DNA of 32,000 nt from Telmatocola sphagniphila (GCF_018398935.1 NZ_CP074694.1:5070001-5102000), one strand, 5' to 3'. Positions 1 to 30,816 are shown, counted from the first letter of the stretch. The notes: generated by a model from the letters alone, not told the origin. Made by a program: numbers and translations.

Positions 1-3000
1 AGTTCCCGACGCTCCTGCGAAAGTAGCACACGCGGCATTATCGCTGAACTGGTTGTAAGCCAGCATCAGAGAGTAAGCCGAGCAGGTTCCCTGCACGGGT
101 CGGGGCACACTTTCGATTGCTCCGGGCACCGAGTTGTTTGCGGTATCGGTTTCGTACGGCGTGATTTCCAGACTGCTGCTGGCATTATCGATCACGTACT
201 GCGGGAAGTAGAGCGAGTTGATGATGCGATTGTAGTCCTGGCACAAGGGTGCACGCACCGCGTTGTAGTAGCCGTTGTAAGTCGTGCCGCTGTAGCTCCA
301 CGTGGGGATCGAGAAACCAATCACCGAAACGAAGTCGTTGGGGTGGTTGTTCTTGATATCCGAAATAGCCGTTTGCACACCTGCTTTAAGCTGCCACATC
401 GGCGCCTCGTGAGAAGTTCCCGGCGACCAGAACTGCTGGCAGGCGAAGTTCTCGATGAAGTCCCACATCGTCAAGGGACCGAACCAGAAGCGCGTAATCG
501 GCCGTCGCGGATTGTCGCGGTAATCCATATACCGCTCGTCGACGATCGTCATGCTGACCGTGTTGCGTACTCCACCCGGGTTAGCGGTATAGGCCTGAGC
601 CTCATACCGACGGGTAGTGATCGTTTCCGTACACGGCTTCGGAGTAATGCTCGCTTTGTACGCCGAAACCCCGTTGGTTACGAGAGGAAATTGATTCGAC
701 GAGGACGGAGTAGTCACATCGGGAATTTCGTCTGCCCCGTAACCTTGAAAACCACTCGCATTGATCGTGCTCCAGCTGCCGTTGGAATTTTGCTTCCAAC
801 CCAGCACGAAGTCGATGTATTCCTTCCAGAAGCGCTGATCGCGCTGGGCCTGAGTGGCAACGGGCATATTACCGCTCGGATTGGTGATGGTAGTCGGAAT
901 GCTGCTGTAATAAAGAATGCCCCCGGCCCGCATACGAGGCGGGAACGGATTGGGTCCGGTGTTCTGCAACCAGTACAGAATCGCATTGTAGTTGAAGGTG
1001 TAATAGTAACTGCCATAGGCGTTACGAACCGCTTCCCCAGCCGCGCTGTAGTTCGTACCTGCTTTCGTCGAAACGTAATTTGCTGTCGTCGAAGGTTTTT
1101 GTTGGAACGGACAAGGGTCGAAGTTGGTCGTGACCGCGTACTCCGAACCCGAAGCGTAGCTCGTCCCTTCCCAACCGCTGCTATTGATCAACGCAGGCCA
1201 AGTCACCGACGACGAGGGAGCTCGCATGCCGGCATAGTTCGAACTGCTGATGTTGCTTTCGAAAATCACCGCGTTGTTATTCACACCCCCGGTGACCGTA
1301 TAAGCCAAGGGTGATGGATTCGAAGGCGGAGGTGTGGTTGCCGTTGTGTTACTGCTCGAGGAAGAGCTACTCGAAGAACTGCTGCTTGAGGAAGAACTCG
1401 AGGAACTACTACTGGAAGTCGAGCTGCCTGTAGTGCCAGTGGTACCTGTAGTACCAGTGGTACCTGTGGTGCTGGACGAACTACCCGTTGTGCTCGGAGG
1501 AGAGGGCACCGTAACAGTCGTGCCCGGCAGGCTCGAAGCCTGGAACGATTGAATGAAGAATCGCTGTCGCCAGTCCTTCGCATCATTATTCGCCGCGACG
1601 TTACCCGCCACGGAAGGACCGCGCGGATCGGGTGGCCAGATGAAGAAGGTTTTGCCCCAGAAGCTCGGCCCCATGGTGTAGCCGTTGTAAGTGCTGCCGT
1701 AACCGTTGGTTTCCCAGTTGGAATTGGTTTGAGCCACGCGGGCTTCGACCGTCTGACTGGTCCAGGCGTTGGTCTTATAGTTCCAGATATTGGTGGTTTG
1801 GACCGTACCGACCATATTCACAGTCGGAGCAGTAGTAATTACCGGATCGCCGAAGCTGACCGTGGTGCTGCTGTTGGTATCCGGCACGGGAGAGGGCAAT
1901 CGCGAAATCGAAGCGATTTTTCCGTCCGTCGCACCCAGAGCGTTGAGACTGGTGTTGGTATGGTTAGCGGAGTTACTCGTGTTTTTGATATAGTAGTATC
2001 CCGTTCCACTTTGCGGGTTACCGCCCCCATTACTGGTCGAACCGTTATTGTAATTTAAAGAGTATCCGCTGGTATCCAGCATACTCCAGATCTGGTTCCC
2101 GGCAATTTCATTCACATTGCGAACCGGATAGCTGCTGCTGGTCGTCAGGTACTGATCGCCGGGTGGAGCTGTGCAATACGAAGAGGGAGCGCGAGTAAAA
2201 GCAGGAACCGAATTACCGTAGGGTACGTTATCCTGAAAGAAGTCATTGGCGCAAATTGAAGGATTACCGCTCGTGGTGTCGAACGACATATTCCCGGTCC
2301 CGGCATATTCACCAGAAACCATTTGGACGTTAATAGTGGGAGGGTTGTAAAGAACGAATCCCGTTGAACTATTCGTGTTGGAATACGGGCCGAAGCGCGG
2401 ATAATCGGGATCGGCATTCATGCTGGTGGTTCGAGCTGCGATCGCGGTACCGGTCGAAGTGGTGAGTGGAGTGGCCATCTGACTGTCAAGCGACATCGAG
2501 CCCGAAAAATCGATGATCATGGCGACGTCGCGCGGCCGGTGAATCGCCGTCGCGGTAGCGCTCACATTCACGCTGTTGATTCCGAAAATTCTGGCGAAAT
2601 AAGTCGGAGGTGTCGTGTTGATAGTGGATTGGACGAGAGTGTACGGGTAACCCGATTGAGTTGTGGAACCAGTATCCGAAGGATAGGCGACGAAACGGGC
2701 CGAGCTTCGATTGTAGTAGTACTGACCCAGCGCCAGTGTCACCTGCCCACTAGTAATAGTCTGACCTAGAACCGAACTGGACAGCGCCGCCGTCTGTGCT
2801 TCCGGTAAAGCCTTCGCGGAGTTGAAATTGGTTGTTGGATCGCCCGTCAATTGACGAGTACCTGCCAAGGCTGCGGCATCCGCCGCCGCCTGAGCCTGAG
2901 TACGAGCGACAAGCAATACACCCACGTCGATGGCTAAGGCAACGAAACTTAGTAGTCCGACGAGACTGATTGCCACTAGAGGTATAACGGCCCCGCGCCG

Positions 3001-3033
3001 TTGAACTCCAGAATGTTCGATACGCCTAAACAT
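1..3033 (-). CDS. TadG-like Flp/Tad pilus-associated protein with a von Willebrand factor A (vWA) domain; partial, 3' end runs off the left edge (>=1011 codons)
   Basis: Absent from the supplied ORF track because there is no stop in the window. My translation of the minus strand from ATG 3033..3031 stays open to base 1 (3033 nt, in frame at base 1). The N-terminus [58 protein letters not shown] matches the TadE/TadG-like N-terminal anchor pattern. Residues 169-180 ([12 protein letters not shown]) carry a DxSxS MIDAS motif at 2497..2511. The gene lies directly downstream of two TadE-like genes on the same strand. Confidence 0.8.
   Translation of the reverse strand, partial: [1011 protein letters not shown]
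1427..1480. repeat. 18-bp tandem repeat (about 2.5-3 units) inside the Ser/Thr-rich linker of the TadG-like gene
   Basis: cctgtagtgccagtggta (1427..1444) and cctgtagtaccagtggta (1445..1462) are followed by a degenerate third unit, cctgtggtgctggacgaa. On the minus strand they encode repeated TGTTGT units. Confidence 0.7.
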
Positions 3034-3102
3034 GCTTCGTCCTCTTATGATGTCTGACAAGGTGTTGCGCCGGGCGCCTTGTTGATATCTCAATTCCGTA
3101 AA

Positions 3103-3594
3103 TCAGTTACCTTCGCTGCACATAACGCAGCTCGTTGTAATGCTCGTCAAATTCGTCATGTTCAAAAACGTGGGCAACACGGGTTTATAAGTTCCCGTCA
3201 CCGTCACACAAATGTAATCCCCAAAGGATGTCTGGTCGAAGGTGGCCGCCGAAGTGGAGGCAGAAACCACGTTCCCGTACTGATCGGTGGGCTGACCATA
3301 TACGTTGGTTTTGTAAACCGTGACAGTGACGTTGGTGAGCGAACTACCCATCTGGCTGACGAAGTTCGCCACGTTCTGCTGCACGTTCGTGACCGAAATT
3401 CCGGTCTGAAGAGTGTCCGTTCGAGCCAGAGCAAAACGCGTCCCTTCCCGAACAGCATTCTGAGTCACATTCAGAGCCATGACATACCGGCTCCATTCGA
3501 TGATCCCGAAAATCATCATGAACACAACGGGGGCCACCACGGCGAATTCGACCGTGGTTGCTCCGCGACGCTGCTTCGATTTCTGTAATCGCAT
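3103..3594 (-). CDS. TadE-like pseudopilin (Flp pilus assembly minor component)
   Basis: The track ORF is 3103..3627. The N-terminal pattern RRGATTVEFAVVAPVVFMMIFGIIEW is the TadE signature. I prefer the ATG at 3594 (MRLQKSKQRRG...). It sits 9 nt after an AAGAGGAG Shine-Dalgarno-like run and does not overlap the upstream gene stop at 3611. The earlier in-frame starts do overlap that stop. Confidence 0.8.
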   Translation of the reverse strand: MRLQKSKQRRGATTVEFAVVAPVVFMMIFGIIEWSRYVMALNVTQNAVREGTRFALARTDTLQTGISVTNVQQNVANFVSQMGSSLTNVTVTVYKTNVYGQPTDQYGNVVSASTSAATFDQTSFGDYICVTVTGTYKPVLPTFLNMTNLTSITTSCVMCSEGN

Positions 3595-3610
3595 CAAAAC
3601 CATCTCCTCT

Positions 3611-4273
3611 TTATGGCAGCGGTCCACCCGGAATCGTCGTATTAACGGTGATGGGTATATCTTTCATGCATAACCAGGTTTGCTTCGCGTAAACGGTGGG
3701 ATTGGCACCCAGGAAAAAGAACAAGTTACTGGGAGACCACCGGGCGAAACTGAACGGATAGGCGACACTCACCTGCAACACGTCATACTGCTGCACCGTA
3801 GAGTCGTTGCAGGGATCGTAAGAGGGTGCGCTGCCAGACTGAGTCACAGCGACGATTTGTGAAATTCCGGTCGAACTGTTGGGTGTCACTTGGGCTGTAC
3901 AAGTCACGCCACGCGTAACGTTGGTGACGGTAATGGTGATGATCGCTCCACCGGTACCCGACATCGGCAGGCCCGAGTTTTGCATGTAATTGGCAACCGC
4001 CGATTGCACCTGGAAGGTCAGGGGACCACTATTCGAACTGAATTGGTTCGGGGTTTGGGTTAATATCGAAGAAGCGTTGTAAAGACCGGTTGCGGCCAGT
4101 CGCGCCCCCTCCCGCGCGGAATTCGATACCATTTGGGTGACATTTAGTAATTGTCCCACTTCCCAAATTCCGAACAAAAGCAACATCATAAACGGCAGCA
4201 CGACGGCGGTTTCGACCGCAGCAACACCCCGTCTGACATGGCCTTTGATCTGTCGCATTCGCATGGGTTTCAT
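3611..4273 (-). CDS. TadE-like pseudopilin (Flp pilus assembly minor component)
   Basis: N-terminus MKPMRMRQIKGHVRRGVAAVETAVVLPFMMLLLFGIWEVGQ: a basic stretch, then the xVExAxxxP motif, then a hydrophobic helix, as in the TadE N-terminal domain. It is the first gene of a three-gene minus-strand operon. Confidence 0.8.
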   Translation of the reverse strand: MKPMRMRQIKGHVRRGVAAVETAVVLPFMMLLLFGIWEVGQLLNVTQMVSNSAREGARLAATGLYNASSILTQTPNQFSSNSGPLTFQVQSAVANYMQNSGLPMSGTGGAIITITVTNVTRGVTCTAQVTPNSSTGISQIVAVTQSGSAPSYDPCNDSTVQQYDVLQVSVAYPFSFARWSPSNLFFFLGANPTVYAKQTWLCMKDIPITVNTTIPGGPLP

Positions 4274-4561
4274 CCCCGTTTTCGATCCTATTAAGGCACT
4301 TTCGCGCTGATAGCGTAATGATCTAGTTTCAACCGTAGATCAGAATTTCGGGCTGTCAAACAAAGTTGAGATTTCGTTCTTTAACGAAAAATCCTTGACG
4401 CCCGGGCGCGATTTTTAGATGCCAAAATTCAAATCTGAGCCCGATTCGCTTGTGATTGCCGCAATTATACCCGCGCGGTTCCGGGCGATCCTAGAGTTAA
4501 ACTGGGTATCTTGGGCCGAAAATCGACCAGTCGTCATTTCTGAACCAAGAAAATCCTACTC

Positions 4562-4591
4562 TTGACAGAATTGGCACACTCGTCGTATCCT
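4562..4591 (+). promoter_or_regulatory. candidate sigma70-like promoter for the ketosynthase cluster
   Basis: TTGACA (4562..4567), an 18-nt spacer, then TATCCT (4586..4591), about 110 nt upstream of the GTG at 4703. This is a pattern match only, and promoter consensus in this lineage is poorly known. Confidence 0.25.
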
Positions 4592-4702
4592 TCCCAATCG
4601 CACTTATGAGAAAAGCTGGCTTCCAAGGCATCCCATGAGCAACGAGGCATTCGGATAACATTGGAACACCCGCTTTAAGCATCCTGAGAGAAAGGATTCT
4701 CC

Positions 4703-5485
4703 GTGATTGCCAAGATTGTCGCGAACGGAAGAAATTCCGCACCACGTCCCAGCGAATCCACGCTTTGCATTGGTATTGGGGCGATCGCCCGAACGGCGGT
4801 TAGCTTCGAAAAATTGCCGGAATTGCGAAAAGAGCTCTCGCTTCGCTTCAAGGATACCCTCACCAGTTCTGTCGTGAAGAATGCAGATGAGCAAAGTCTG
4901 GTGGCGCTATCGGCCATGTCGGAAGCCATACAACAGATGCCGATGCGCAGCGCCGCCGACTGGGGGGTGATTGCCACCCCGCGCTATTTCGGTCGTTCGC
5001 GCTGCGCCGAAATGATTCGCAAGTACCGCGATCAGGGGGCCTGGAGCGCTTCCCCCCATATTATCCCGCAGTGCATGTTGCATTCGCTTTCGGGTCTTCT
5101 CAGCCAGGCCTTTGGAATCACCGGGCCCAATATCGGGGCCGGCGGAAGTCGCGGCGGAGAACGCGAGGCCCTGCTCGCCGCGTTCGGCTGGCTCTCCGCC
5201 GGGAAACTTCCTGGCGTCTGGTTGATCATGACCAGCTGGGATAGCGAGGAAACGGCATACTCCAGCGGAGTTTGCCATGCGGTTGTTGTCGCGTTGAAAT
5301 CTTCCACGACCGGATCGACGCGGCTGCGGCTGAAACCCGCGGGATCGGGAGAAAATCTCGAACCCTTCTCGCTGGAAAGTTTGACCGATGAATTGACGAA
5401 CGAATGGAGCCGGCCGGTGACCTGGGATATGAGTCATGTCGGTACGCTCCATCTAGAACCCTCCAACCAGTTTCAGATTGTCTGA
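4703..5485 (+). CDS. Ketosynthase-like protein lacking the catalytic cysteine (chain-length-factor / ApeC-like partner subunit)
   Basis: 260-aa ORF with a GTG start preceded by GAGAGAAAGGA. The segment ...SPHIIPQCMLHSLSGLLSQAFGITGPNIGAGGSRGG... aligns by eye with the KS region that normally ends in xACxS, but no Cys is present there. The protein is short, roughly the N-terminal thiolase half. It sits immediately upstream of a complete KS. Confidence 0.6.
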   Translation: MIAKIVANGRNSAPRPSESTLCIGIGAIARTAVSFEKLPELRKELSLRFKDTLTSSVVKNADEQSLVALSAMSEAIQQMPMRSAADWGVIATPRYFGRSRCAEMIRKYRDQGAWSASPHIIPQCMLHSLSGLLSQAFGITGPNIGAGGSRGGEREALLAAFGWLSAGKLPGVWLIMTSWDSEETAYSSGVCHAVVVALKSSTTGSTRLRLKPAGSGENLEPFSLESLTDELTNEWSRPVTWDMSHVGTLHLEPSNQFQIV

Positions 5486-5521
5486 GGCTTAAACCTTTGC
5501 CCTCCTTGAGGCCGAGCTCGC

Positions 5522-6760
5522 ATGGTAAGTTCTCACTTACGCTTTCCGACCGATCGCACCTGTATCACGGGGATAGGTGCCGGTACGCCTTTGGGTTGGG
5601 ATTTCGAATCGATATCGCAGAATCTGCTGGCGGGTAAATCTGCCGTGCGGGAGATCCTGGGTTTCGACGTCGCGAACCATCCTTCGAAGATCGGGGCGGG
5701 AATCGCCGATGTGCCGGTGCCGCCCGGTTTCAGCGAGGTTGCCTTCCGAAGCCGTTCCCGACTCGAGCAACTCTGTCTGTTCTGCGTGCAGGCTTCGCTG
5801 CAGGACGCCGGCCTGTGGCAGAAGAAAGACCAACTGCGAATCGGACTGATTATCGGCAATGCTTCCGACTGCATGTGGCACTGGGAAGAAGATGGCCTGA
5901 CGTTCATGAAAGAGGAATACTGTCTGGCCAAGAGAGATCGCCCGCCCTTGGTTTCGATCATACAAAAAGAACTGGGCATCCAGGGACCGGCCACCGTTCT
6001 GTCGGCGGCCTGTGCTTCCGCCAACTTTGCCTTCGACATGGCCCGGCAATGGCTCGACCTGGGACTGGCCGATGTCTGCCTTGCGGGAGGTTGCGATACC
6101 GGCCTGACGGCCGTGACGCTAGCCTGCTTCGGTAACCTCCGGGCGCTCTCTCGCAACAACGAAAATCCTGCCGGGGCTTCCCGACCATTCGACCGGGGCC
6201 GCGATGGCTTCGTTCTGGGCGAAGGGGGCGTCATGTTCGTTCTGGAAAAAGAAAACCGGGCTAAGAGCCGTTCCGCTCCGATTTATGGCAACGTTCTCGG
6301 TTGCGGCTTAACCAGCGACGCCCACCATATGGTGATCCCCAATCCGGAACCGACTCAGGCGGCCCGGGCCATTCGCATGGCCCTCGAAGAAGCCGGGCTC
6401 AATCCTGATCAGGTCGATTATGTAAATGCTCACGGCACCAGCACTCCAGTCGGCGATGCCGCGGAGGCGAAGGCCATCCAGATGGTGTTCGAGGAGATCA
6501 CTCGAATCGTGCCGGTCAGCTCGACTAAGAGTATGACTGGTCATTTATTGACAGCCGCCAGTGCTCTGGAAGCTTTGGCTTGTCTAACGGCGTTTCGCTA
6601 CAGCGCCATCCCGCCGACAATCAATCTGCAGGACATAGATCCTGATTGTCAGCTAAATCACGTCGCAAATCACGTCCAGGAACGCAAAGTCAAAGTAGCC
6701 TTGAGCAACAGCTTTGGCTTCGGTGGGTCCAATAGCTGCCTGGTGCTGGCCGCCGCGTAA
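5522..6760 (+). CDS. Beta-ketoacyl-ACP synthase family protein (FabF/KAS II-like, complete Cys-His-His triad)
   Basis: 412 aa. Active-site Cys in LSAACASANFAFD, first His in TSDAHHMV, second His in VNAHGTSTPVGD, and the C-terminal SNSFGFGGSNSCLVL motif. Confidence 0.9.
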   Translation: MVSSHLRFPTDRTCITGIGAGTPLGWDFESISQNLLAGKSAVREILGFDVANHPSKIGAGIADVPVPPGFSEVAFRSRSRLEQLCLFCVQASLQDAGLWQKKDQLRIGLIIGNASDCMWHWEEDGLTFMKEEYCLAKRDRPPLVSIIQKELGIQGPATVLSAACASANFAFDMARQWLDLGLADVCLAGGCDTGLTAVTLACFGNLRALSRNNENPAGASRPFDRGRDGFVLGEGGVMFVLEKENRAKSRSAPIYGNVLGCGLTSDAHHMVIPNPEPTQAARAIRMALEEAGLNPDQVDYVNAHGTSTPVGDAAEAKAIQMVFEEITRIVPVSSTKSMTGHLLTAASALEALACLTAFRYSAIPPTINLQDIDPDCQLNHVANHVQERKVKVALSNSFGFGGSNSCLVLAAA

Positions 6761-6874
6761 CCGGAATTGTTGGAGAAAAGTTTGACGGCGATTTCCCGAT
6801 CGCCCGAATCTGTTCGTGAGTCGCCTTGGTATAATGCCTCTCAGCGCTCCATTTGCAAATCCATGGACTGAGTG

Positions 6875-8548
6875 ATGTTCCGTCGATTATTACTTCGCAC
6901 CGCCGGGCGATTGGTGGCTCGACCCATTCGCCGTCGTCTCAATGCCTTCGTTGCAACCACGCATCATCCGGAAACCGCTCAGAGCGATCTGCTGCAGCGA
7001 ATCATTGCCAAGCAGCGGGACACTGGCTTCGGCCGCGATCACGGCTTCTCCACCATTCGTACGGTCGAAGACTTCCGCCGACAGATTCCGGTTGCGCCCT
7101 ATGAATACGTCGCCCCGTACGTTCAACGGGTGCAAAAAGGGGAAACCAGCGCGCTGCTGTCCGATCCGCAGGTACTGATGTTCGCCCTCACTTCCGGCAC
7201 CACGGCCAGCCGCAAGATGATCCCCATTACTCAGGACTACCTGGACGATTATCGCCGGGGCTGGAACATCTGGGGACTGACGGCCATGCGCGATCATCCG
7301 GTGATCTCGCTGAAGCCGATGGCTCAGATGGTTGGCGATCCCGAAGAATTCCGCTGCGAAGCGGGCATCCCCTGCGGCAATCTCTCCGGCTATACGGCGC
7401 AAGTTCAAAAGAAGATCGTGCGCGGTCTGTACACTGTCCCGGCGTATACCGGAAAAATCAAAGACCCGGTTAGTCGATACTATGTGGCTCTATTGTGTAG
7501 CTTGCGCCGAAAAGTCGGCATGCTGATGGCCGCTAATCCCAGTACGCTGGTGGCACTGGCCCGGGTCCTCGATCTGCACAAGGAAAACCTCCTCCGGGAT
7601 CTGGCTCAGGGCACCCTCTCCAACAACTTGGACATCGCCCCCGAATTGCGCGCAGCCCTGGCACTGCGACTCAAGGCCGATCCGGCTCAGGCAAAAAAAC
7701 TGGAAGCCATCGCCCAGCGCGAACCTGTGTTCCTTCCCAAACATGTCTGGAAACCGGAAGAACTGATGATCGGCTGCTGGACCGGCGGCAGCGTGGGGCC
7801 TTACCTGCGTCAGTTGCCCGATTACTATGGCAACACCCTGCTGCGCGATATCGGTCTACTGGCCAGTGAAGGACGGATGACCATTCCGCTGGAAGACAAC
7901 TCCCCGGCGGGCGTTCTGGATATCAGCAGCCATTACTTCGAGTTCATTCCGGAAGGGGAGATCGAGTCGAAGCAGCCGATTTGTCTGCGCGCCCACGAAC
8001 TCGAAGAAGGTAAGCCCTACTACATCCTGCTCACCACCAAATCGGGATTGTATCGGTATCACATCGTCGACCTGGTGCGGATGACCGGTAAATTCAACGG
8101 CACGCCGCTCATCGAATTCCTCGGGAAGGGAAACCGCTTTGCGAATCTGACCGGGGAGAAGCTCAGCGAACATCATGTCACCCAGGCGATGATTCATGTG
8201 ATGAAGACGATCCCTCAACCGATCACGGCCTACGCCCTCGCGCCGGTCTGGGACGAGAAGCAGCCTTATTACGGGATTTTTCTGGAAGAGCAGGATATGA
8301 AAGATCCGGTGCTGCTGGCCAGCTTCCTGAAGGGACTGGAAGCCGAGTTACGCCGGCAGAACGTGGAATACGATGCGAAGCGGGACAGCGGCCGGTTAGG
8401 TCCGGTACAAGCCCTAAAGATTTCAACCGGAGCCTGGAGCCGCTGGGACAAACAGAACCTCGCCAAGCGCGGCGGCAGCCCGGAGCAATACAAGCATCCT
8501 TGTCTGATTGGCGATCTCGAATTTGTGAAAGAGATCGAGAAGTTTTAA
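6875..8548 (+). CDS. GH3-family acyl-acid amido synthetase (adenylate-forming, ANL superfamily)
   Basis: The three GH3 nucleotide-binding motifs are visible: LTSGTTASRKMIP, LLASEG (compare plant YASSE), and GLYRYHIVDLVRMTG (compare plant GLYRYRxGD). The track starts at GTG 6872; the adjacent ATG at 6875 is equally possible. Confidence 0.85.
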   Translation: MFRRLLLRTAGRLVARPIRRRLNAFVATTHHPETAQSDLLQRIIAKQRDTGFGRDHGFSTIRTVEDFRRQIPVAPYEYVAPYVQRVQKGETSALLSDPQVLMFALTSGTTASRKMIPITQDYLDDYRRGWNIWGLTAMRDHPVISLKPMAQMVGDPEEFRCEAGIPCGNLSGYTAQVQKKIVRGLYTVPAYTGKIKDPVSRYYVALLCSLRRKVGMLMAANPSTLVALARVLDLHKENLLRDLAQGTLSNNLDIAPELRAALALRLKADPAQAKKLEAIAQREPVFLPKHVWKPEELMIGCWTGGSVGPYLRQLPDYYGNTLLRDIGLLASEGRMTIPLEDNSPAGVLDISSHYFEFIPEGEIESKQPICLRAHELEEGKPYYILLTTKSGLYRYHIVDLVRMTGKFNGTPLIEFLGKGNRFANLTGEKLSEHHVTQAMIHVMKTIPQPITAYALAPVWDEKQPYYGIFLEEQDMKDPVLLASFLKGLEAELRRQNVEYDAKRDSGRLGPVQALKISTGAWSRWDKQNLAKRGGSPEQYKHPCLIGDLEFVKEIEKF

Positions 8549-8679
8549 AATGAGATGAAGTTTATGCGATGGGGTTTAAAATAAACTTTCTCTTATTTAA
8601 AATCTGTTCTTCGCAAGTACTTCATAAGCAATTTCTAATTTTAAACTCCGTCGCCCGGGTCTATCGGAGTTTCAGGTTA

Positions 8680-9738
8680 ATGCGTTCTATCAAACGTGGG
8701 GCTTTCACGCTCATCGAACTGCTGGTGGTGATCGCCATCATCGCGGTTCTCATCGGCCTTTTGTTACCGGCCGTGCAAAAAGTCCGGGAGGCCGCTTCCC
8801 GGATGCAGTGTTCCAACCATTTGAAGCAAATCGGGCTGGCTTTTCACAACTACGCCAGCGTCAACGGGACATTACCGCGCGGCGGTCGCGATGGTCGACC
8901 GTCCGGCCAGCCGACTCAGAACTGCTGCAACTGGACGGATAATAACCAGGCGAAATCCAACGCGGCCGGCGTCAAGGATGATCGGGACGGCTACAGCTGG
9001 CGCTACTGGATCCTGCCGTACATTGAGCAGGATAATGTTTACAACGCGATCGAGCGTGCAACGGTATACAACGCGGCGATCAAAATCTACTATTGCCCCT
9101 CCCGTCGGGACGCCGAGTCCTACAGCGGTTCGGCCCGCTGCGACTACAACGGGAACGCCGGATCCTATTTCTCCAACGGCACCCCCACCGACGACTCCGC
9201 CGGTTCGAGCGGCAACGGCAGTCCGGCTGTGACGGAAACCAATACTTTCGATGGCGTGGTGCTTCGATCCAACGTCGCTCCGGTGGCCTTAAACCGCATC
9301 AGCGATGGAACTTCCAATACACTGCTGGTCGCCGAGAAGTGGCTCCATCCGCTGCGGGTGGCAACAGCGGCCGCCTCCGGCAACGATGGGGGCGATAACG
9401 AAGTCTGGTGTAATGCGGGTTGGGATGAATGCATTGTTCGCGTCGGTGCAGGCACTTATAGCTATCTCTACAACGGCGGCCAACCCGCCGGACCCGGCTC
9501 CACGACTCGTACCATTCCCCGGACTCCTCGGCCCGACATCGAAGCCCCTTGCGTGGTCGATGCCGCGGGCAAACCCGTAACCATCTGGAACCAACAATTC
9601 GGCGGACCGCACCCCGGCGGCGTTAACACGGTCTTTTGCGATGGATCGGTGCGTACCGTGACGTTCAGCGTGGATGCCGCGACCTGGGCCGCTGCCTGCA
9701 CGCGTAACGGCAATGAAACGTTGTCCATCAACAACTAA
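8680..9738 (+). CDS. DUF1559-family protein with a prepilin-type N-terminal cleavage/methylation leader
   Basis: [58 protein letters not shown] is the classical [10 protein letters not shown] pseudopilin leader followed by the DUF1559 signature. The C-terminal part contains ...FCDGSVR.... I use ATG 8680 (GGAG about 10 nt upstream) rather than the track start at 8569, which adds 37 non-pilin residues. Confidence 0.9.
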
Positions 9739-9757: not shown

Positions 9758-9937
9758 TTGAATAAATGGCTATTGGTGATTTTTCTGTGCGGAATTCCGC
9801 TGGCTGCAGGCTGCGGGGGCGCCAAGGAAGAGAAAAGATCGGCCCAGGATCTGGAAGCTTTACAGAATAAGGATCAGGCGTCCGTGGACGAAGCCGAGAG
9901 GCGACTGGAGCGTCCCGGCGAGAAGCGCAAACGCTAG
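9758..9937 (+). CDS. 59-aa mini-lipoprotein with a charged, probably disordered tail
   Basis: TTG start 6 nt after GGAG (9748..9751). It reads M-NKWLLVIFLCGIPLAAGCGGAKEEKRSAQDLEALQNKDQASVDEAERRLERPGEKRKR, a short signal peptide with lipobox LAAGC. The track ORF 9674..9937 is in the same frame but overlaps the DUF1559 gene. An ATG at 9713 is an alternative start. Confidence 0.55.
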   Translation: MNKWLLVIFLCGIPLAAGCGGAKEEKRSAQDLEALQNKDQASVDEAERRLERPGEKRKR

Positions 9938-9943
9938 TTGAGT

Positions 9944-10420
9944 CTACTTGTCGTCCCGGTTCGGATCGAACGCGGGACTATTGGGATCGTCATCCCGGGG
10001 TACGCCGGTCTTTTCACCGGCTCCCCCATCCGGCAGTTCAATTTCAATCTGATTCCGCGTTTCCTCCACCGTCAACCTGACTTTCGATTCGATTTGAGTT
10101 CCGGTGACTGCGCCATTGCCGCCCGGATGATAAATCAGCTTGTATTTGCCTTTGGGCAAGCCCGGATAGAAGATCACCGGAGTATCTTTGAGCCGGCTGG
10201 TCCGCGCTTCGTAGGTGCCATCCGGATTGACTGATGCATCGAAGATGCAACCGCCACGGCCTCCCTCCTCGGCCACGAACAGGAGTCCGCCGCCGGTTAC
10301 CGGCTTGCCGTTTTGAATCACTTTTCCATTCACCGGATACAAACCCGAGAGGGTCGGGCCGGAATCCTGGCATCCGGAACACAAAAAGAGAGCGGTCAGT
10401 CCCAAAAACAGTCTTCGCAT
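9944..10420 (-). CDS. Lipoprotein with a carboxypeptidase-regulatory-like (small beta-sandwich) domain
   Basis: MRRLFLGLTALFLCSGCQ is a signal peptide plus lipobox. The body (YPVNGKVIQNGKPVTGGGLLFV...NPDGTYE...GLPKGKYKLIY) has the pattern I associate with CarboxypepD_reg-like lipoproteins that often neighbour DUF1559 genes. Confidence 0.7.
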   Translation of the reverse strand: MRRLFLGLTALFLCSGCQDSGPTLSGLYPVNGKVIQNGKPVTGGGLLFVAEEGGRGGCIFDASVNPDGTYEARTSRLKDTPVIFYPGLPKGKYKLIYHPGGNGAVTGTQIESKVRLTVEETRNQIEIELPDGGAGEKTGVPRDDDPNSPAFDPNRDDK

Positions 10421-10968
10421 AAAGATTTCCTTATTTGGTTTCTGTTTTTCTATGGGTGGCGATTGGCAATTGAGTGTAGTTATTGCAAAGGCCTGGCGAA
10501 GTTTGGCGGTAGAGGGGTTTCGAGAAGCATTTGAAAGAACTCCGATCCCGCAAACGGGGAGTTTTGGGCGAAGAGTCCAGAATTTTTAAGAGGGCGGCTT
10601 TTGACCCAACGGGAGGGTTCGGGAGCTTTTGGAGCTCTCTCGCGAAAACTATTTGGCGAAATCGCAGTGAATTGAAATGGATTATTCCCAAGAAATGAGG
10701 GGGCCTTTAGGCGAAAGCGGTCTCGAGCACCGCCGCAACTCTCTTCCAGACCGAAACACCCTCACAATCGAACGACTTTCGCCGATCGGTACAAAGGCGC
10801 TAGCGTCCGCATATTTTTCAGCTTTTCGACCCTATCAAAATTTCCCATTCTTCGCAGGCGCGTCATACTGCCAGTGTACATGTCGAACGTAGGCGTCGTG
10901 TTTTCCGCGGTTCTGGATGGCCGCAGGCGATGACCACGGGCGACCCAAAGGAAACGGAGAAGATTTCC

Positions 10969-11976
10969 ATGTTTAAGCTCAGTCTGGGCAAATGTTTGTC
11001 CGCGGGTGCGCTCCTGGCTCTGGCCCCGTTCGCGGCCCAAGCCAAGGATGCATGTAGCCCCTGCACCTCGACCGTCAAAGTGTTGGAATACGTTCCGACC
11101 CAGGTACAAGAAAAGCGATGCAGCTACAAGACCGAACAGAAGGTCGAAAGCTACACCGCCTACAAGTACGAAACGGTGTCGGAAGTTAAGACCCGACAAG
11201 TGACGGTTTACCACAAGGTCACCGAACAGGTGGTCGAACCCCGCACCGTGACCGTCAAGGTTCCCGTGTGGGAAGAGCGAACTGAATTGGTGAAGAAGAC
11301 CCGCATCGAACACTACACGGAAAACGTGACCAAGTGCGTCGATAAAGGTCACTGGGAAACCCAGACGGTTGCCGCTGGCCCCAGCATTCTGGACCACTTG
11401 AGCAGCCTGAAGCCCAGCTTCGGCCATCTCCACAGCAAGATCGCTAGCGACAACGGTTGCAGCACGGGATGCGACAATCCTTGTGCAGCTCCTGCACCGT
11501 GTCCCACGGTTCGCACCAAGTGCGTCAAAGTATGGGTTCCCAACCTGGTTCAGGAATCTCACCCGGTCTGCAAGACCCGTCACGTAACGGAATGCGTTCC
11601 CGTGACCAAGAAGGTCTGCAGCTACAAGTGTGAGACGAAGGTTGAGCAGGTCACCGTCTGCAAGACCAAGTGCGTTCCAGAAACGAAGACCGAAAGCTAC
11701 ACGGTTTGCAAGAAGGTTTGCGTTCCTTACCAGGCTACCCGCACGGTTTGCGTGAAGGTTCCGGTCGAAGAAACCGTGACCGTGACCAAGTGCATCCCGA
11801 CTTGGGTTGAAAAGCAAGTCGCCGTTGCTCCCGCAGTTTCGGCTTGCGACGCTGGTTGCGGCAGTGCTAGCGGAATCAAGAGCTTCTTCGCTGGCCTCAA
11901 AGGCAAGCTCCACAGCATTGGTTCCTCCACGGCTTGCGGCTGTGCAGCTCCCACGACCAGCTGCGGTTGCAAATAA
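10969..11976 (+). CDS. Secreted Cys/Lys/Val/Thr-rich repeat protein, possibly related to the planctomycete YTV-repeat family
   Basis: ATG 10969 with GGAG 10 nt upstream. Signal peptide MFKLSLGKCLSAGALLALAPFAAQA|KD. The body consists of short beta-strand-like repeats (xTVxVKVPV, ESYTVCKKVCVP, RTVCVKVPVEETVTVTKCIP). The YTV assignment is from memory of the Pfam family and is unverified. Confidence 0.7.
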   Translation: MFKLSLGKCLSAGALLALAPFAAQAKDACSPCTSTVKVLEYVPTQVQEKRCSYKTEQKVESYTAYKYETVSEVKTRQVTVYHKVTEQVVEPRTVTVKVPVWEERTELVKKTRIEHYTENVTKCVDKGHWETQTVAAGPSILDHLSSLKPSFGHLHSKIASDNGCSTGCDNPCAAPAPCPTVRTKCVKVWVPNLVQESHPVCKTRHVTECVPVTKKVCSYKCETKVEQVTVCKTKCVPETKTESYTVCKKVCVPYQATRTVCVKVPVEETVTVTKCIPTWVEKQVAVAPAVSACDAGCGSASGIKSFFAGLKGKLHSIGSSTACGCAAPTTSCGCK

Positions 11977-16414: not shown

Positions 16415-16776
16415 CAATGAATTTCCGATTTCTTTAGTCATTTTGGAAACGAATGGTCTAAAGGTGTCGCTAAAACCGATATCGCCCGCACATTCTTATT
16501 GAAGTTCGCAGAATACCAATTCTCCTTGACCCAAAAAATCAGCCCCCTTAAACTATAGCGGATATCGTTAGGGTAGATCGCCTTCGATTGGCCATTAATT
16601 CCGCTGCCAAAACGGGTTACCACCTGGGCAGCTCTTTGGATTATTCGCAGGAACTGCAAATCTCTTATTCAAAATGCCTTAAACCGGACGCTCTCCCGAT
16701 TCCCAGTGCCAGGATCGCTTCCCTGGTGATGGTCTCTTTCAATGTGAACGTCCGCTAATTTTTGGGGAACCTCTTC

Positions 16777-19700
16777 ATGGTAATTCGATTCAAGCCCCGT
16801 CGTCTCTTCGCCAGTCTGGGGGCTGCTTGCCTATTTGCCGCAAATTCCCCAGTTCAAGCCCAGAACTATACCTGGAGCAGCTCGGCCCCCGGTGGCAACT
16901 GGTCGCAGTCAGCCAACTGGGGCGGCAGCGCCCCGTCCGGCGCCTCCCCCACGACTACGCTCACTTTCGGAGGCACGACGACCGCCGGCCTGACTAGCTC
17001 CAACGATATTGCGAATCTTCAAGTAAACTCGATCACTTTCAACTCGACGGCCGGGGCTTATAGCATCTCCGGAAACGCCATTCAGTTCCTGAACAGCGGA
17101 TCCACCATCACCCAAAATTCCAACAGTAATATCAGTCTACCTGCTTTGACTATCTCGAATGGGCTCAGCATCAACGGCTCGGGCACCGGAACTCTCACAG
17201 TTAATAGCCTGGCCTTCAACAGTGGCGGGGCCGGAAATCAGGCCAGTCTTGATACGGGATCGAAAGTGCTGGTTCTGAACGGCGATATGTCGCTGGATGG
17301 AAGCGGTGTACCGAATGCGGTGACTGTAAAAGGAACGATTCAACTGTCCGCGGGCAACCATACTTTCAATGGGTTGAACTATACCGGGGCGAATGCCCAG
17401 GACATCGTGTTCAGCAACGTCTTTCAGGGCTCCGGGGGCATCACTTATACCGGTATCGATTCTGTAGCCATCACGGGAGTCAGCACTTACACCGGTGCGA
17501 CCATCTTCTCGAGCACTACTGCCAACTACCTGGGAGCCACCAACGCCCTGCCCTCGGCCAGCGCGGTCACCGTGAATTCCACTTTGCAATTCTTCACGAC
17601 GGATCCCAGCGGCGGGGTGACCATTGGTAACTTCAGCCAGAACATCGGTTCGCTCGCGGGAGCGGGCTCGGTGAATATGGGCTCCGCCAGCCTGACCACC
17701 GGTAACGACAACACCAACACGACCTTTTCCGGTATTCTCAGCGACGATGGCTCGGGTAGCAGCACCATTACGAAAGTCGGAACAGGCACCTGGACTCTCA
17801 GCGGTACCAACACTTTCACCGGACAACTGGTCATCGCGAATGGCACAGTCGCCGTCGGTTCGTTCGCGGCCCCGGGAAACAGCAGTAATCTGGGAGCCAC
17901 GGCGGCCAGTAAGAACTTTATTTTGGGGGGTAACGGCACCACGGGCTTCCTCCAATACACCGGATCGAGTGCCGCCAGTTACTCCCGTAACTTCACCTTG
18001 GCTACCGGCGGAAGCGGCGGTTTCCTCGGAAATCTCGGCGATTTGACCCTCTCGGGCAGTATTAGCGGCAGTGGGAATCTGATCAAAGCCGGAACCAACA
18101 ACCTGATTTTAAGCGGTACGAACACCTTTACCGGTTCGATTACCGTCACCGGTGGGAATTTGAGTCTGACCGGAACCGCGAACTCTTCGGGCAATATTAA
18201 CCTGCTCGGTGGAAAACTCACTCTCGATAATACGGCCTCGGCTTTGACTCGATTGGGAACCACTCCCACGCTGACCCTGAACATGGGCGAGTTGAACATC
18301 ATCGGAAACACTGTGAATCCCAGCGGAAACATCGAAAACTTCGGTGCGCTCAATGTCATCGGGGGAACGAGCGCCAACAATCGCCTCACCCTGACGAATT
18401 CCGGCTCCGCTTTGCAAGTGACTTTTTCCAGTCTCAACGTCAGCAATGGCTCCAGCCTGCTGATTCGCGGCGACAATCTCGGCGGCAGCAGCGGCAGCTA
18501 TACCCGCGTGCTGTTCACCAGCGCCCCCGGGACGACTTCGGCCCCCCTATCGGGCGTACTCTTCGATAATTCCTCCAGCGGCACGGGACTGGGACTGGCC
18601 GCTTACAGTTCCACTCTCGGCATCGTTCAGTTCACCGCGGCCAACACCACGGGGAACATCATCGACAACATCAATTCGCCCAATACTTCCACGATCGCCA
18701 ACTTCACCACCGGCAACGGCGGCTCGACCTTGACCATCAACGCCGGGGCCACCATCGTCGCCCTGAACTTCAGCAACGAATTCAGCACGGCCAACTTCAA
18801 AAATCTCTACGGCTCCAGCGGCAACAACGCCAACGCTCCCGCCGGCACTCTGGTAGTCAGTAGTGGTCTGATCCAGGTCTTGAACACGGCCACCAATGTG
18901 ACCGTGAACGGCGATACGGGAGGCAGCACCCTCAGCACCGCGGGAGGCTTCACTTTCAATTTGAATCAGAATCTCACCTTCGCTTCGAACATGACACTCA
19001 GCGCGGCCGGTCTGACAAAACTGGGGGCCGGTAGCTTGGTGATCAACGGGACGAATTCAATCGCCGGAGATTACAACATTTCCAGCGGAAGTGTGAGCAT
19101 CGCCGGAGCCACGACCGCGGGGAACCTCAACATCAGCGGCTCTTCCGTGGCTTCCTTCAATAGTGCCAGCACTCTGAATTCGATCAATCTCAGTGGCACC
19201 GCAACAGTGAATTTTGCCGGCGGATCGGCCGGTAGCATCAGCTCGTCTTCCTCTTCGACATCTTTGAACCTGACCGGCAACCTCACTCTGACCGGCAATT
19301 CGACCACGACCTTCGCGGGTGTGATCAGTGGCGGATCGGCTTCGCTGATTACCAGTTCCGGCAGCACCGGCACTCTGACGCTAACCAACTCCAATACTTT
19401 CGGCGGTGGCTTGGCGGTTAACGGTGGAACGGTTTATCTGGCTAATGGCAACTCGGCCGGTACCGGCACGCTCACCCTCAACGGCGGGACCGTCAGTTAT
19501 TCAGGCGGCACGACGACCCTGGCCGCAGCCGGATTGAGCTTTGGAACCTTCGGAAGTAGTACTCTGCAAGTGACCACGGCCGGAACGGTCCTCACCGTCG
19601 CTGGCGTTTCCGGCTCGGGCTCCTGGACCTTCGATGGCGGCCAAGGCATCACTTCGACCAGCCGTGGCGGAACCCTGCTCATCAATTCGACCTCGGTCTC

Positions 19701-21147
19701 CTCGGGCGGTTCGCTGTCGGTCATTGGCAACGGGCTGGTACAACTGGGAGCCAATAATGCCCTACCCAGCGGCATCAACTTAAATGTGACTCCCGGCAAC
19801 GTCTCGAACGTTGGAGCCGGCCTGGATCTTCAGACGTTCAACCAGACGGTTGGCAACATTACAGCGACACTCGGCACCAGCAACTCGCCGATCACCGGCC
19901 AGCCCATCGTTCAGGGAAGCGGTACTTTAACGCTCAACGGCGATGTCAGCATTGTGACCTCCGGCTCGGCCAGCTATCCTCTGACCATCAATCCTTCGGT
20001 CGTACTGTCGGCGGGTAACCACAATTTCTCAACGCAGGCCGGCGGTAATTCGGATGTGTATCACGGCGATTTGCAGTTCCTCGGTAGCATCAGCGGCGCA
20101 GGCAGCGTGACACTGCCCTCCACTTCTCAAGGAATTATCGACTTCGAAGTCGCCAACACTTACACCGGCACAACTTCCGTGCTCGGCGGCACGCTGTACT
20201 TACGCGGCAATAATGCCATTCCCTCAACCAGTGCCGTCACCCAGGCGGCCGGGACGGTGATCGATTTCACCGGCGGGAACGTCCTCACCAGCGGTACCAG
20301 TTCTACCTTTGGTTCACTGACGGGAGCCGGCAGCATTATTCTCGGCTCTTCCTCAATACTGACAATCGGAGCCGATAACACCTCCCCCGCGGCCTACACG
20401 GGAGCCATCAGCGGCGGCGGCAGTCTTACGAAAATCGGAACCGGCACACTCATCCTCAGCGGAACGAACACGTACACCGGCGGGACCAACGTGAATGCCG
20501 GTAGCCTTCGCATTAACGGGTCCCTCTCCACGGGGGCCGTGCAAGTTTCGCAGGGGGCAATCATCGGCGGGAACGGCAGCATCAATGGCACTCTGACGGT
20601 CGCGGCCGGAGGGACGATCGACATTGGTAGTGCACCGGCAACTGTCGGTACCCTACGCGTCGGAGGCAGTGTCACCATTAATGGCGGTACCGGGGGCTCG
20701 ACGACCAACTGGAATGTCGACATCAACGGTACGACTACCAGCAGCGCCGACAATTTGACGCTGCTCAGTAGCTCGGCGGTTTTGAATTTCGTCGCCACCG
20801 GCGGCAACAAAATCAACATTCAGATGAATGATCTGGCGTCGGGTATGGTGGTGAATAACGACTACACATTCAAGATTGCTACCGTTTCGACCGGCACGGG
20901 ATCGACGAACATCCAGAGCAACGGCGGCGTGTTCACCGCCTCGCAGTTCACCTTCTCGGCAACGAATTTCGCATTCACCAATCAGAACATCGCCATCAAT
21001 GGCGACAACCTGATCATCTCGTTCACGGTGATTCCCGTGCCCGAACCCGCCACACTGCTGGTGTTTGGTTCGGCCGGACTGGGAATGCTGGGGTGGATGC
21101 GAAGGCGCAAAAATCGCAAACTTACCAGCACCGCCTCGATTGCGTAA
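16777..21147 (+). CDS. Giant secreted autotransporter-associated beta-strand-repeat protein with a C-terminal PEP-CTERM sorting domain
   Basis: Signal peptide MVIRFKPRRLFASLGAACLFAANSPVQA|QN, using ATG 16777 (the track uses TTG 16762). There are many repeats of the type K(V/A/I)GTGTLxLSGTNT(F/Y)TGxxxVxxGxLxV. The C-terminus VIPVPEPATLLVFGSAGLGMLGWMRRRKNRKL has VPEP at 21037..21048, then a TM helix and a basic cluster. Confidence 0.9.
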   Translation: MVIRFKPRRLFASLGAACLFAANSPVQAQNYTWSSSAPGGNWSQSANWGGSAPSGASPTTTLTFGGTTTAGLTSSNDIANLQVNSITFNSTAGAYSISGNAIQFLNSGSTITQNSNSNISLPALTISNGLSINGSGTGTLTVNSLAFNSGGAGNQASLDTGSKVLVLNGDMSLDGSGVPNAVTVKGTIQLSAGNHTFNGLNYTGANAQDIVFSNVFQGSGGITYTGIDSVAITGVSTYTGATIFSSTTANYLGATNALPSASAVTVNSTLQFFTTDPSGGVTIGNFSQNIGSLAGAGSVNMGSASLTTGNDNTNTTFSGILSDDGSGSSTITKVGTGTWTLSGTNTFTGQLVIANGTVAVGSFAAPGNSSNLGATAASKNFILGGNGTTGFLQYTGSSAASYSRNFTLATGGSGGFLGNLGDLTLSGSISGSGNLIKAGTNNLILSGTNTFTGSITVTGGNLSLTGTANSSGNINLLGGKLTLDNTASALTRLGTTPTLTLNMGELNIIGNTVNPSGNIENFGALNVIGGTSANNRLTLTNSGSALQVTFSSLNVSNGSSLLIRGDNLGGSSGSYTRVLFTSAPGTTSAPLSGVLFDNSSSGTGLGLAAYSSTLGIVQFTAANTTGNIIDNINSPNTSTIANFTTGNGGSTLTINAGATIVALNFSNEFSTANFKNLYGSSGNNANAPAGTLVVSSGLIQVLNTATNVTVNGDTGGSTLSTAGGFTFNLNQNLTFASNMTLSAAGLTKLGAGSLVINGTNSIAGDYNISSGSVSIAGATTAGNLNISGSSVASFNSASTLNSINLSGTATVNFAGGSAGSISSSSSSTSLNLTGNLTLTGNSTTTFAGVISGGSASLITSSGSTGTLTLTNSNTFGGGLAVNGGTVYLANGNSAGTGTLTLNGGTVSYSGGTTTLAAAGLSFGTFGSSTLQVTTAGTVLTVAGVSGSGSWTFDGGQGITSTSRGGTLLINSTSVSSGGSLSVIGNGLVQLGANNALPSGINLNVTPGNVSNVGAGLDLQTFNQTVGNITATLGTSNSPITGQPIVQGSGTLTLNGDVSIVTSGSASYPLTINPSVVLSAGNHNFSTQAGGNSDVYHGDLQFLGSISGAGSVTLPSTSQGIIDFEVANTYTGTTSVLGGTLYLRGNNAIPSTSAVTQAAGTVIDFTGGNVLTSGTSSTFGSLTGAGSIILGSSSILTIGADNTSPAAYTGAISGGGSLTKIGTGTLILSGTNTYTGGTNVNAGSLRINGSLSTGAVQVSQGAIIGGNGSINGTLTVAAGGTIDIGSAPATVGTLRVGGSVTINGGTGGSTTNWNVDINGTTTSSADNLTLLSSSAVLNFVATGGNKINIQMNDLASGMVVNNDYTFKIATVSTGTGSTNIQSNGGVFTASQFTFSATNFAFTNQNIAINGDNLIISFTVIPVPEPATLLVFGSAGLGMLGWMRRRKNRKLTSTASIA

Positions 21148-30471: not shown

Positions 30472-30816
30472 GCCGCACTCCAACAAAAGAAAAAAAGAAA
30501 AATGAAAGAAACAACTCACAACTACTGCTTGTGTGGAATCGAGATTTATCGCAACTCCTGAACAAACAAACAGTTCCTGACAGCCTCAAATGTGGCGATG
30601 AGATAATGTGCAGAACAGAGGAAAGTTTCTCTGCTTAATTGATAATGAAAATGCTATTAAATAACAATGATTTATAAATTAATAATTGATTTTTAATTCG
30701 ATTAAAATTTGTTTATCTGATGTGAAAATCAACAAATTAAAGAGTCAAATCTGGCTGAAGGCTCACTTCCACCAGATTATATAAATATTATTTAATTTAA
30801 AATAAGACTCATTTAA

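Follow-up and report, generated by a model that had tools for sequence, protein, structure and literature searches.

A truncated chain-length-factor/ketosynthase pair beside a GH3 amido synthetase in Telmatocola sphagniphila: probably two separately conserved modules

Introduction

In the ApeO-ApeC complexes (6QSP, 7F28), a ketosynthase (KS) with a Cys-His-His triad is joined by a Cys-less thiolase half of about 200-260 aa that is encoded directly upstream, and the GH3 acyl-acid amido synthetases of plants, among them JAR1 (4EPL), grape GH3-1 (4B2G), GH3.5 and GH3.12, share a three-domain architecture and characteristic nucleotide motifs. Here we analyse three genes of Telmatocola sphagniphila (Gemmataceae) in which counterparts of both systems stand next to each other: gene 1, encoding a Cys-less thiolase-fold protein, gene 2, encoding a KS, and gene 3, encoding a GH3-family enzyme. 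They lie on the 6.59-Mb chromosome, within a stretch of 32,000 nucleotides (GCF_018398935.1, NZ_CP074694.1:5070001-5102000) that is referred to below as the window. An earlier note on this DNA had read the three genes as an orphan trio and as a candidate minimal pathway for an acyl- or polyene-acid conjugate.

A precedent of another kind is found in prodiginine biosynthesis. In the PigJ/PigH (RedX/RedN) route to 4-methoxy-2,2'-bipyrrole-5-carbaldehyde (MBC), an acyl group bound to an acyl carrier protein (ACP) is lengthened by a KS together with its Cys-less KS-like partner, after which an alpha-oxoamine synthase carries out the condensation with an amino acid.

Bacterial GH3 enzymes were given their first function, in ornithine-lipid synthesis, with OlsH of the planctomycete Singulisphaera acidiphila, a GH3-family N-acyl-ornithine synthetase published together with OlsI in 2025 (PMC12493201). 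The substrates of OlsH are a free fatty acid, ATP and ornithine; its operon contains no KS, ACP, ketoreductase (KR) or dehydratase (DH) genes, and S. acidiphila, which has neither OlsB nor OlsF, relies on OlsH/OlsI (PMC12493201). The statement of the earlier note that no characterised bacterial pathway was known for the combination of genes is thus outdated as far as the GH3 enzyme is concerned, the OlsH/OlsI pathway itself operating without a KS.

Results and discussion

Genomic contexts of the three genes

We read the three genes as members of two lipid or polyketide modules that are conserved separately and lie side by side in T. sphagniphila, and put the probability of this reading at roughly 0.6. 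The genes are arranged as follows.

4703-5485, + strand: gene 1 (QVL31178.1), 260 aa, GTG start; predicted Cys-less, truncated thiolase-fold protein, an ApeC-like partner of gene 2 of the chain-length-factor (CLF) type
5522-6760, + strand: gene 2 (QVL31179.1), 412 aa, ATG start; FabF-like beta-ketoacyl-ACP synthase with intact Cys-His-His(+Lys)
6872-8548, + strand: gene 3 (QVL31180.1), 558 aa, GTG start; predicted GH3-family acyl-acid amido synthetase (ATP-dependent carboxylate-amine ligase)

An alternative ATG start of gene 3 is found at 6875, and the NCBI annotation accordingly gives 557 aa. The gap between genes 1 and 2 measures 36 nt and that between gene 2 and GH3 111 nt (114 nt when counted from the ATG at 6875), so that the coordinates of the open reading frames (ORFs) confirm the co-directional layout with short gaps described earlier. 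Homologues of ACP, KR, dehydratase, alpha/beta-hydrolase and alpha-oxoamine synthase were not found anywhere in the 32-kb window by tblastn with reference proteins, and Pfam searches of ten further window ORFs returned no lipid-synthesis domain. The window is therefore without ACP, KR and DH, as had been stated, and the label of an orphan trio is accurate.

The separate conservation of the two parts is seen in their genomic contexts, which were called by tblastn with reference proteins rather than by full annotation. Two samples were used: 82 gene-1 loci, consisting of L001, L002 and 80 metagenome contigs with 545 kb in total, and 80 GH3 loci of the Gemmataceae, of which 71 were informative. 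A GH3 gene is present in 0 of the 82 gene-1 loci, and a gene-1- or gene-2-type gene in 0 of the 80 GH3 loci; the trio, which had been proposed as one unit, is thus not co-conserved across related genomes. The hydrolase of the GH3 gene set described below is likewise found in none of the 82 gene-1 loci. Sequence identity places gene 2, too, in another module than GH3: it is 58% identical to L001_KS and 53% identical to L002_KS, the orthologous KS of the gene-1 module, as against 34-37% to KSb and 31-32% to KSa, the two KS of the GH3 gene set. The trio is a junction found in this species alone among the sampled genomes, not a conserved operon. Both modules are variants of GH3 amido synthetases and KS/CLF heterodimers, respectively, and neither is categorically new.

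A ketosynthase and its truncated partner

Gene 1 has no match in Pfam. Its NCBIfam matches, to the N-terminal part of the fabF and polyketide synthase (PKS) KS models, are weak (E ~3e-5), and a profile of the gene-1 family built from 27 sequences matches FabF residues 76-158 with an E-value of 6e-6. In the latter comparison, 'GPNYA' of FabF is aligned to 'GPNIG' of the family, and the alignment stops at the FabF loop bearing the catalytic Cys, where the gene-1 family has no conserved Cys; the family consensus, HGPNIGAGGxPG, contains none at or near the catalytic position. The earlier description of gene 1 as aligning with the N-terminal half of a KS, without the active-site Cys, is borne out. 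The family is well populated: 35 homologues were found among database proteins and 117 among metagenomes of the Joint Genome Institute (JGI), and its members share the blocks KQADEQSLVAL, WGxVAAPR, QGAWSxSPHxIP and HGPNIGAGG as well as 20 invariant columns.

An AlphaFold2 model of gene 1 computed from the family alignment reached a mean predicted local distance difference test score (pLDDT) of 85.5 and a predicted template modelling score (pTM) of 0.84. Foldseek searches with this model returned thiolase-fold proteins only, in agreement with the thiolase-like fold proposed earlier. The best matches by target-normalised TM-score were 7f28_C (198 aa, 0.65), 6qsp_B (238 aa, 0.58) and another short chain of 7F28 (0.55), and each of these short chains is the chain-length factor, ApeC, in an ApeO-ApeC complex from Acinetobacter or Xenorhabdus. 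The resemblance is one of moderate TM-scores (0.5-0.65) at a sequence identity of 12-14%. Gene 1 is thus a real and conserved gene, predicted from alignment and model to encode a truncated, Cys-less thiolase half of the chain-length-factor type. The conserved length of the family, the 20 invariant residues and the confident fold led us to reject the view that it is what remains of a complete KS, whether as a fragment or as a pseudogene.

Gene 2 possesses the N and C domains of Ketoacyl-synt (Pfam; E 1e-36 and 1e-37), and its closest solved relative is FabF 1j3n. An alignment of the catalytic residues, numbered as in E. coli FabF, shows that it keeps Cys163, His303, Lys335 and His340, confirming the full Cys-His-His triad noticed earlier. 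The assignment of gene 2 as a housekeeping FabF was considered and is unsupported, since the gene scores 382.5 bits on the NCBIfam model fabF (TIGR03150), under the equivalog cutoff of 493.75, and is always paired with gene 1.

A KS of the gene-2 type, 52-65% identical to its counterparts, follows gene 1 directly in all of the 52 loci with enough downstream sequence, and in L001, L002 and L168 the stop codon of gene 1 and the start codon of the KS gene overlap by 4 nt. With the ApeC fold match, this co-occurrence and these overlaps uphold the proposal that genes 1 and 2 represent an ApeO/ApeC-like combination of a KS and a truncated partner without Cys, and we regard the two as a predicted obligate pair of the KS/CLF type. 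In such a pair, gene 2 would carry out a decarboxylative Claisen condensation on an ACP-bound substrate, whereas the non-catalytic gene 1 product would replace the second subunit of the KS dimer and shape the substrate pocket, as ApeC does for ApeO. The closest relative of gene 1 (L167, 67%) shares the order of a divergent TadE gene followed by gene 1 and gene 2, and the place of the pair beside Tad genes therefore predates T. sphagniphila.

The likeness to ApeO-ApeC does not extend to the neighbourhood. The ApeH ligase, the ApeI/P dehydratases, the ACPs and the LolA-like or export genes that belong to those systems are absent from the window and from the homologous loci, and the usual neighbours of genes 1 and 2 are instead an alpha-oxoamine synthase and an ACP. 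The trio was rejected as an aryl-polyene cluster, as no accompanying ape genes are present in the window and none are conserved around gene-1 homologues.

GH3 orthologues and their gene set

The GH3 N, M and C domains of Pfam (PF03321, PF23571, PF23572) are matched by gene 3 with 235.5, 72.1 and 62.3 bits (cutoff 23.6; E 1e-69, 4e-20 and 9e-17), and its residues 24-546 align end to end with grape GH3-1 (4b2g, E 1e-30). The plant enzymes named above, with which end-to-end alignments range from E 1e-30 to 1e-19, share with gene 3 the three-domain architecture and the nucleotide-binding motifs, conserved here as TSGTTASRK, LLASEG and GLYRYHIVD. All three GH3 ATP/AMP motifs reported earlier are present, and the full-length alignment to plant GH3 structures adds to them. 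Gene 3 differs from the plant enzymes in being bacterial and in the context of its orthologues, which points to fatty or polyketide acids, not hormones. Orthologues at 55-67% identity occur throughout the Gemmataceae, for example in Tuwongella, Zavarzinella, Limnoglobus, Gemmata, Fimbriiglobus and Frigoriglobus; the GH3 of L005/L006 is 67% identical to gene 3, and the nearest relative, in L086, 79%.

The 80 GH3 loci fall into the following classes by what lies upstream of the GH3 gene.

All seven genes present: 29 loci
Hydrolase and FabF-like KS, then contig end: 16 loci
Hydrolase only: 10 loci
No hydrolase and no KS, with 3 kb or more of flanking sequence: 16 loci
Uninformative: 9 loci

Complete (29) and contig-cut (16) loci together amount to 45 of the 71 informative loci with an eight-gene set, whose order is FabZ/ApeI-like dehydratase, FabG-like reductase, ACP of 128-132 aa, second FabZ-like dehydratase, KSa, KSb, alpha/beta-hydrolase and GH3. 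A complete set is exemplified by L003 (1807-9707), and also by L005/L006. The alpha/beta-hydrolase directly precedes the GH3 orthologue in 55/71 informative loci. In KSa the catalytic Cys is replaced in 35/35 sequences, by Asp (31) or Glu (4), and the second His mostly by Asn; KSb retains the full Cys-His-His triad in 44/44 sequences. On the FabF model the KSb of L003 scores 500 bits (cutoff 493.75), and the reductase of the cluster, with 290 bits on the FabG model, lies just short of the cutoff of 297.75.

A set that lacks an enoyl reductase and is made up of a KS, a Cys-less KS, a KR, an ACP and two dehydratases of the FabZ type resembles both the ishigamide enzymes Iga11/Iga12 (6KXD-F) and the FabF, FabG and FabZ proteins of type II fatty-acid synthase (FAS II). 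It differs from an ishigamide-type PKS in that its KS and KR are at or near the FabF/FabG equivalog level, nearer to FAS than to PKS, and the set is absent from the window. DUF1571 was rejected as a core part of the cluster, since no more than 8/59 loci have it downstream of GH3 at a distance of up to 3 kb. In L006, a long inverted repeat with three GTGGTCA and three TGACCAC units separates the hydrolase from GH3 (~9880-9990).

In a simple distance tree of the GH3 proteins (neighbour-joining), loci with the full cluster are scattered over all major branches, and the full cluster is therefore likely the ancestral arrangement; loci with GH3 alone form several separate clades. The Telmatocola GH3 pairs with that of L086, which has GH3 alone, and their sister group comprises L006, a locus with the full cluster, and L007/L010, where only the hydrolase is present. 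L086 shows no homology to the window outside the GH3 gene itself. None of the seven cluster genes is present in the Telmatocola window, although gene 3 is an orthologue of the GH3 of the cluster. The orthologues of gene 3 would ancestrally have been the last gene of the eight-gene set, and in the Telmatocola lineage the GH3 gene would have lost these neighbours and now lies 111 nt downstream of the gene-1 module. The proposal that GH3 is fed by a KS/CLF system thus holds for the GH3 family, whose orthologues usually end a set of KS/CLF, KR, DH and ACP genes, but not for the gene 1/2 pair.

GH3 enzymes require a free carboxylate. Gene 3 would adenylate a free carboxylic acid with ATP and then couple it as an amide to an amine or amino acid, a chemistry that has been demonstrated for OlsH and for GH3 enzymes of plants. 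Because this GH3 lineage is normally coupled to a KS/CLF acyl-ACP set with a hydrolase, the most likely chemistry, by analogy, is that a fatty or reduced-polyketide acid is adenylated at the expense of ATP and then linked to an amino acid as an amide. In the complete set the acid would most likely be built on the ACP and released by the hydrolase, which, sitting between the KS genes and GH3, seems well placed to free it from the ACP; GH3 would then yield a lyso-aminolipid or N-acyl amino acid. The literature consulted contains no account of a FAS/PKS-like gene set that includes a GH3 ligase, or of one that ends in a hydrolase and GH3. The orthologues of gene 3 represent a second GH3 lineage across the Gemmataceae, with motifs nearer to those of plants and usually tied to its own FAS-like set and hydrolase, and this gene set predicts unknown N-acyl amino acids or aminolipids in a phylum noted for unusual lipids.

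Relation of gene 3 to OlsH

Among the intact polar lipids of T. sphagniphila, trimethylornithine lipid is the most abundant, and lipids of this kind are also present in other Gemmataceae (PMC7828035). With this lipid dominant, T. sphagniphila must have an ornithine-lipid synthase, and gene 3 could be its lyso-ornithine-lipid synthetase, an equivalent of OlsH making N-acyl-ornithine for the trimethylornithine lipids, to which the KS pair would be irrelevant. We consider this possible but unlikely. The dominance of ornithine lipids in the organism (PMC7828035) fits such a role, as do the use of OlsH/OlsI in place of OlsB/OlsF by S. acidiphila and the good conservation of the GH3 in all sampled Gemmataceae. 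Gene 3 and OlsH are alike as planctomycete GH3 enzymes, OlsH joining a free fatty acid to an amino acid by means of ATP, and the alpha/beta-hydrolase usually found directly upstream of gene 3 orthologues parallels the neighbourhood of OlsI and OlsH. In L004/L010, moreover, the order hydrolase, GH3, dual N-methyltransferase comprises the same three enzyme classes as olsH-olsG-olsI.

The protein sequences themselves argue against equivalence. On NF052613, the NCBIfam equivalog model for OlsH, gene 3 scores 114.9 bits and its Tuwongella orthologue 125.4 bits, compared with a cutoff of 620; motif 3 of gene 3 is the plant-like GLYRYHIVD and not the GMWSHLIGD of OlsH; and the hydrolase of the cluster matches no OlsI-like NCBIfam model. 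Tuwongella immobilis possesses two GH3s, and the member assigned to the OlsH clade in the OlsH paper is VTR97332.1, not the gene 3 orthologue VTR96604.1. In a representative search with gene 3, OlsH-type proteins were not among the matches listed, at least 150 GH3 proteins that all scored at least 274 bits. Gene 3 is only a distant relative of OlsH (115 vs 620 bits), with another motif 3 and with no hydrolase or methyltransferase next to it in the window.

The methyltransferase of L004 (6505-11794; the same locus as L010, OY970367.1) is a 612-aa protein that follows GH3 and has two protein-lysine-N-methyltransferase-like domains, which hints at methylated aminolipid synthesis.

The junction in Telmatocola

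Two intergenic regions bear on the question of whether the three genes act together; promoter and terminator scans of these regions yielded consensus matches only.

6761-6871, + strand: gap between gene 2 and GH3, 111 nt, holding TGGTATAAT at 6827-6835; no terminator-like hairpin
4274-4702, no strand: divergent intergenic region between the Tad-like genes (- strand) and gene 1, with a sigma-70-like TTGACA-18-TATCCT at 4562-4591 (consensus match only)

Some observations weigh against a mere juxtaposition of two modules. A CLF/KS pair lies directly upstream of GH3 and in the same direction, just where the orthologues of this GH3 normally have another CLF/KS pair, a placement that is unlikely to arise by chance (well under 1% by a rough estimate) and that favours a functional link in Telmatocola. 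In addition, a consensus-type terminator scan detected no terminator-like hairpin in the 111-nt gap, and gaps of ~100 nt also precede GH3 within the conserved cluster, so that co-transcription is possible. Functional coupling of genes 1 and 2 to GH3 in Telmatocola is a tentative proposition, to which we give well under even odds.

In its fullest form, coupling would make the trio one pathway, in which genes 1 and 2 displaced the ancestral Cys-less KS and FabF-like KS and borrow ACP, KR, DH and thioesterase from elsewhere, with GH3 conjugating the acid. This explanation, which we find doubtful, draws on the fact that a CLF/KS normally precedes GH3 orthologues and that the Telmatocola pair occupies the equivalent position, on the same strand and with short gaps; the oxoamine synthase that usually accompanies the pair is, in Telmatocola, an unlinked solitary gene; and Zavarzinella formosa has a gene-1 homologue together with a GH3 locus (L024) that lacks the KS set, which is compatible with a complementary distribution. 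However, the gene-1 homologue of Zavarzinella lies outside the 10 kb around GH3, and the adjacency recurs in no other genome sampled (0/80, 0/82). The GH3 relative with 79% identity (L086) has no upstream KS and different flanks, the place of the pair beside Tad genes is older than the GH3 junction, the gap contains an extended -10-like box, and no hydrolase that could free the acid is present in the window.

The box in question, TGGTATAAT, resembles an extended -10 box and ends 36 nt before the GH3 start; as a consensus match only, it may hint at a separate GH3 promoter. TAnAAT boxes also precede GH3 in some of the loci with GH3 alone (L086, L017, L080).

More speculative still, and in our view rather improbable as a whole, is a scenario in which the Gemmataceae use an undescribed route composed of a KS, an Asp/Glu-type CLF, a KR, two dehydratases, a long ACP, a hydrolase and GH3 to make aminolipids or N-acyl amino acids of a new class, and in which, in Telmatocola, an unrelated ApeC-like CLF/KS displaced the KS genes of this route to leave a minimal KS/CLF-to-GH3 route of the kind that the earlier note had in mind.

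The oxoamine synthase module

In other Gemmataceae-like planctomycetes, an alpha-oxoamine synthase, a pyridoxal-phosphate (PLP) enzyme of the BioF/Kbl/Spt family, lies divergently upstream of gene 1 in 27/44 loci, and a small ACP is found within 3.5 kb of gene 1 in 8/21 loci, in L152 and L154 immediately before it. The module of oxoamine synthase and truncated-CLF/KS pair spans 8219-11994 in L001 and 8378-11940 in L002. Clustering of neighbouring ORFs around gene 1 yielded a weak association with DUF6134 (7 loci) and was dominated by shadow ORFs of the GC-rich DNA. In Telmatocola, the orthologue of the synthase (QVL34753.1, 65% identity) lies far from the trio, and a near-identical assembly shows it as a solitary gene with unrelated neighbours. 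No description of a truncated-CLF/KS pair with an alpha-oxoamine synthase was found in the literature consulted; the pair together with the synthase, and sometimes with an ACP, defines a widespread uncharacterised module.

Since the pair usually adjoins the divergent oxoamine synthase and sometimes an ACP, its normal product would probably be an ACP-bound acyl or beta-ketoacyl chain destined for condensation with an amino acid. The enzyme classes of the module are the same as those of PigJ/PigH, from which it differs in that its proteins are separate and not fused, in the absence of pyrrole-pathway genes and in the weak score of gene 2 on the PigJ model (102 vs 900 bits).

KS enzymes are known to initiate pimelate synthesis (BioZ), and the PigJ/PigH logic leads from a KS through an ACP to an oxoamine synthase. 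That genes 1 and 2 act with the synthase and ACP in primary metabolism, for instance by providing pimeloyl-ACP for BioF and biotin or a sphingoid-type base, with the GH3 adjacency meaningless, is improbable: the BioZ and PigJ/PigH precedents, the best match of the synthase to bioF (269-291 bits), its wide conservation at 63-80% identity and its divergent position relative to gene 1 (27/44 loci) agree with it, but the synthase remains under every equivalog cutoff, that of bioF (426) included, also occurs without a nearby gene 1 or KS (L170, L171), and is not accompanied by other bio genes in the loci.

Other features of the window

The trio is flanked by genes of pilus and prepilin type.

1-4273, - strand: Tad-like pilus region, with TadE-like genes at 3103-3627 and 3611-4273 and an ORF that exceeds 1034 aa and continues beyond the window
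8569-9738 (+ strand), 29500-30519 (- strand) and 31074-31991 (- strand): three DUF1559 paralogues of a type common in planctomycetes, each with a prepilin-type N-methylation motif

The first of the DUF1559/prepilin-like genes, at 8569, begins 20 nt past the GH3 stop codon. Further downstream, a 348-aa protein with a signal-like N-terminus (10930-11976, + strand) is rich in Cys, Lys, Val and Thr, contains repeated 'CxxVxxKVxV'-like segments and is without a Pfam match. A repeat-rich protein of 1461 aa (16762-21147, + strand), rich in Gly, Ser, Thr and Asn, also has a signal-like N-terminus, and its C-terminal tail (VPEPATLLVFGSAGLGMLGWMRRRK) resembles PEP-CTERM.

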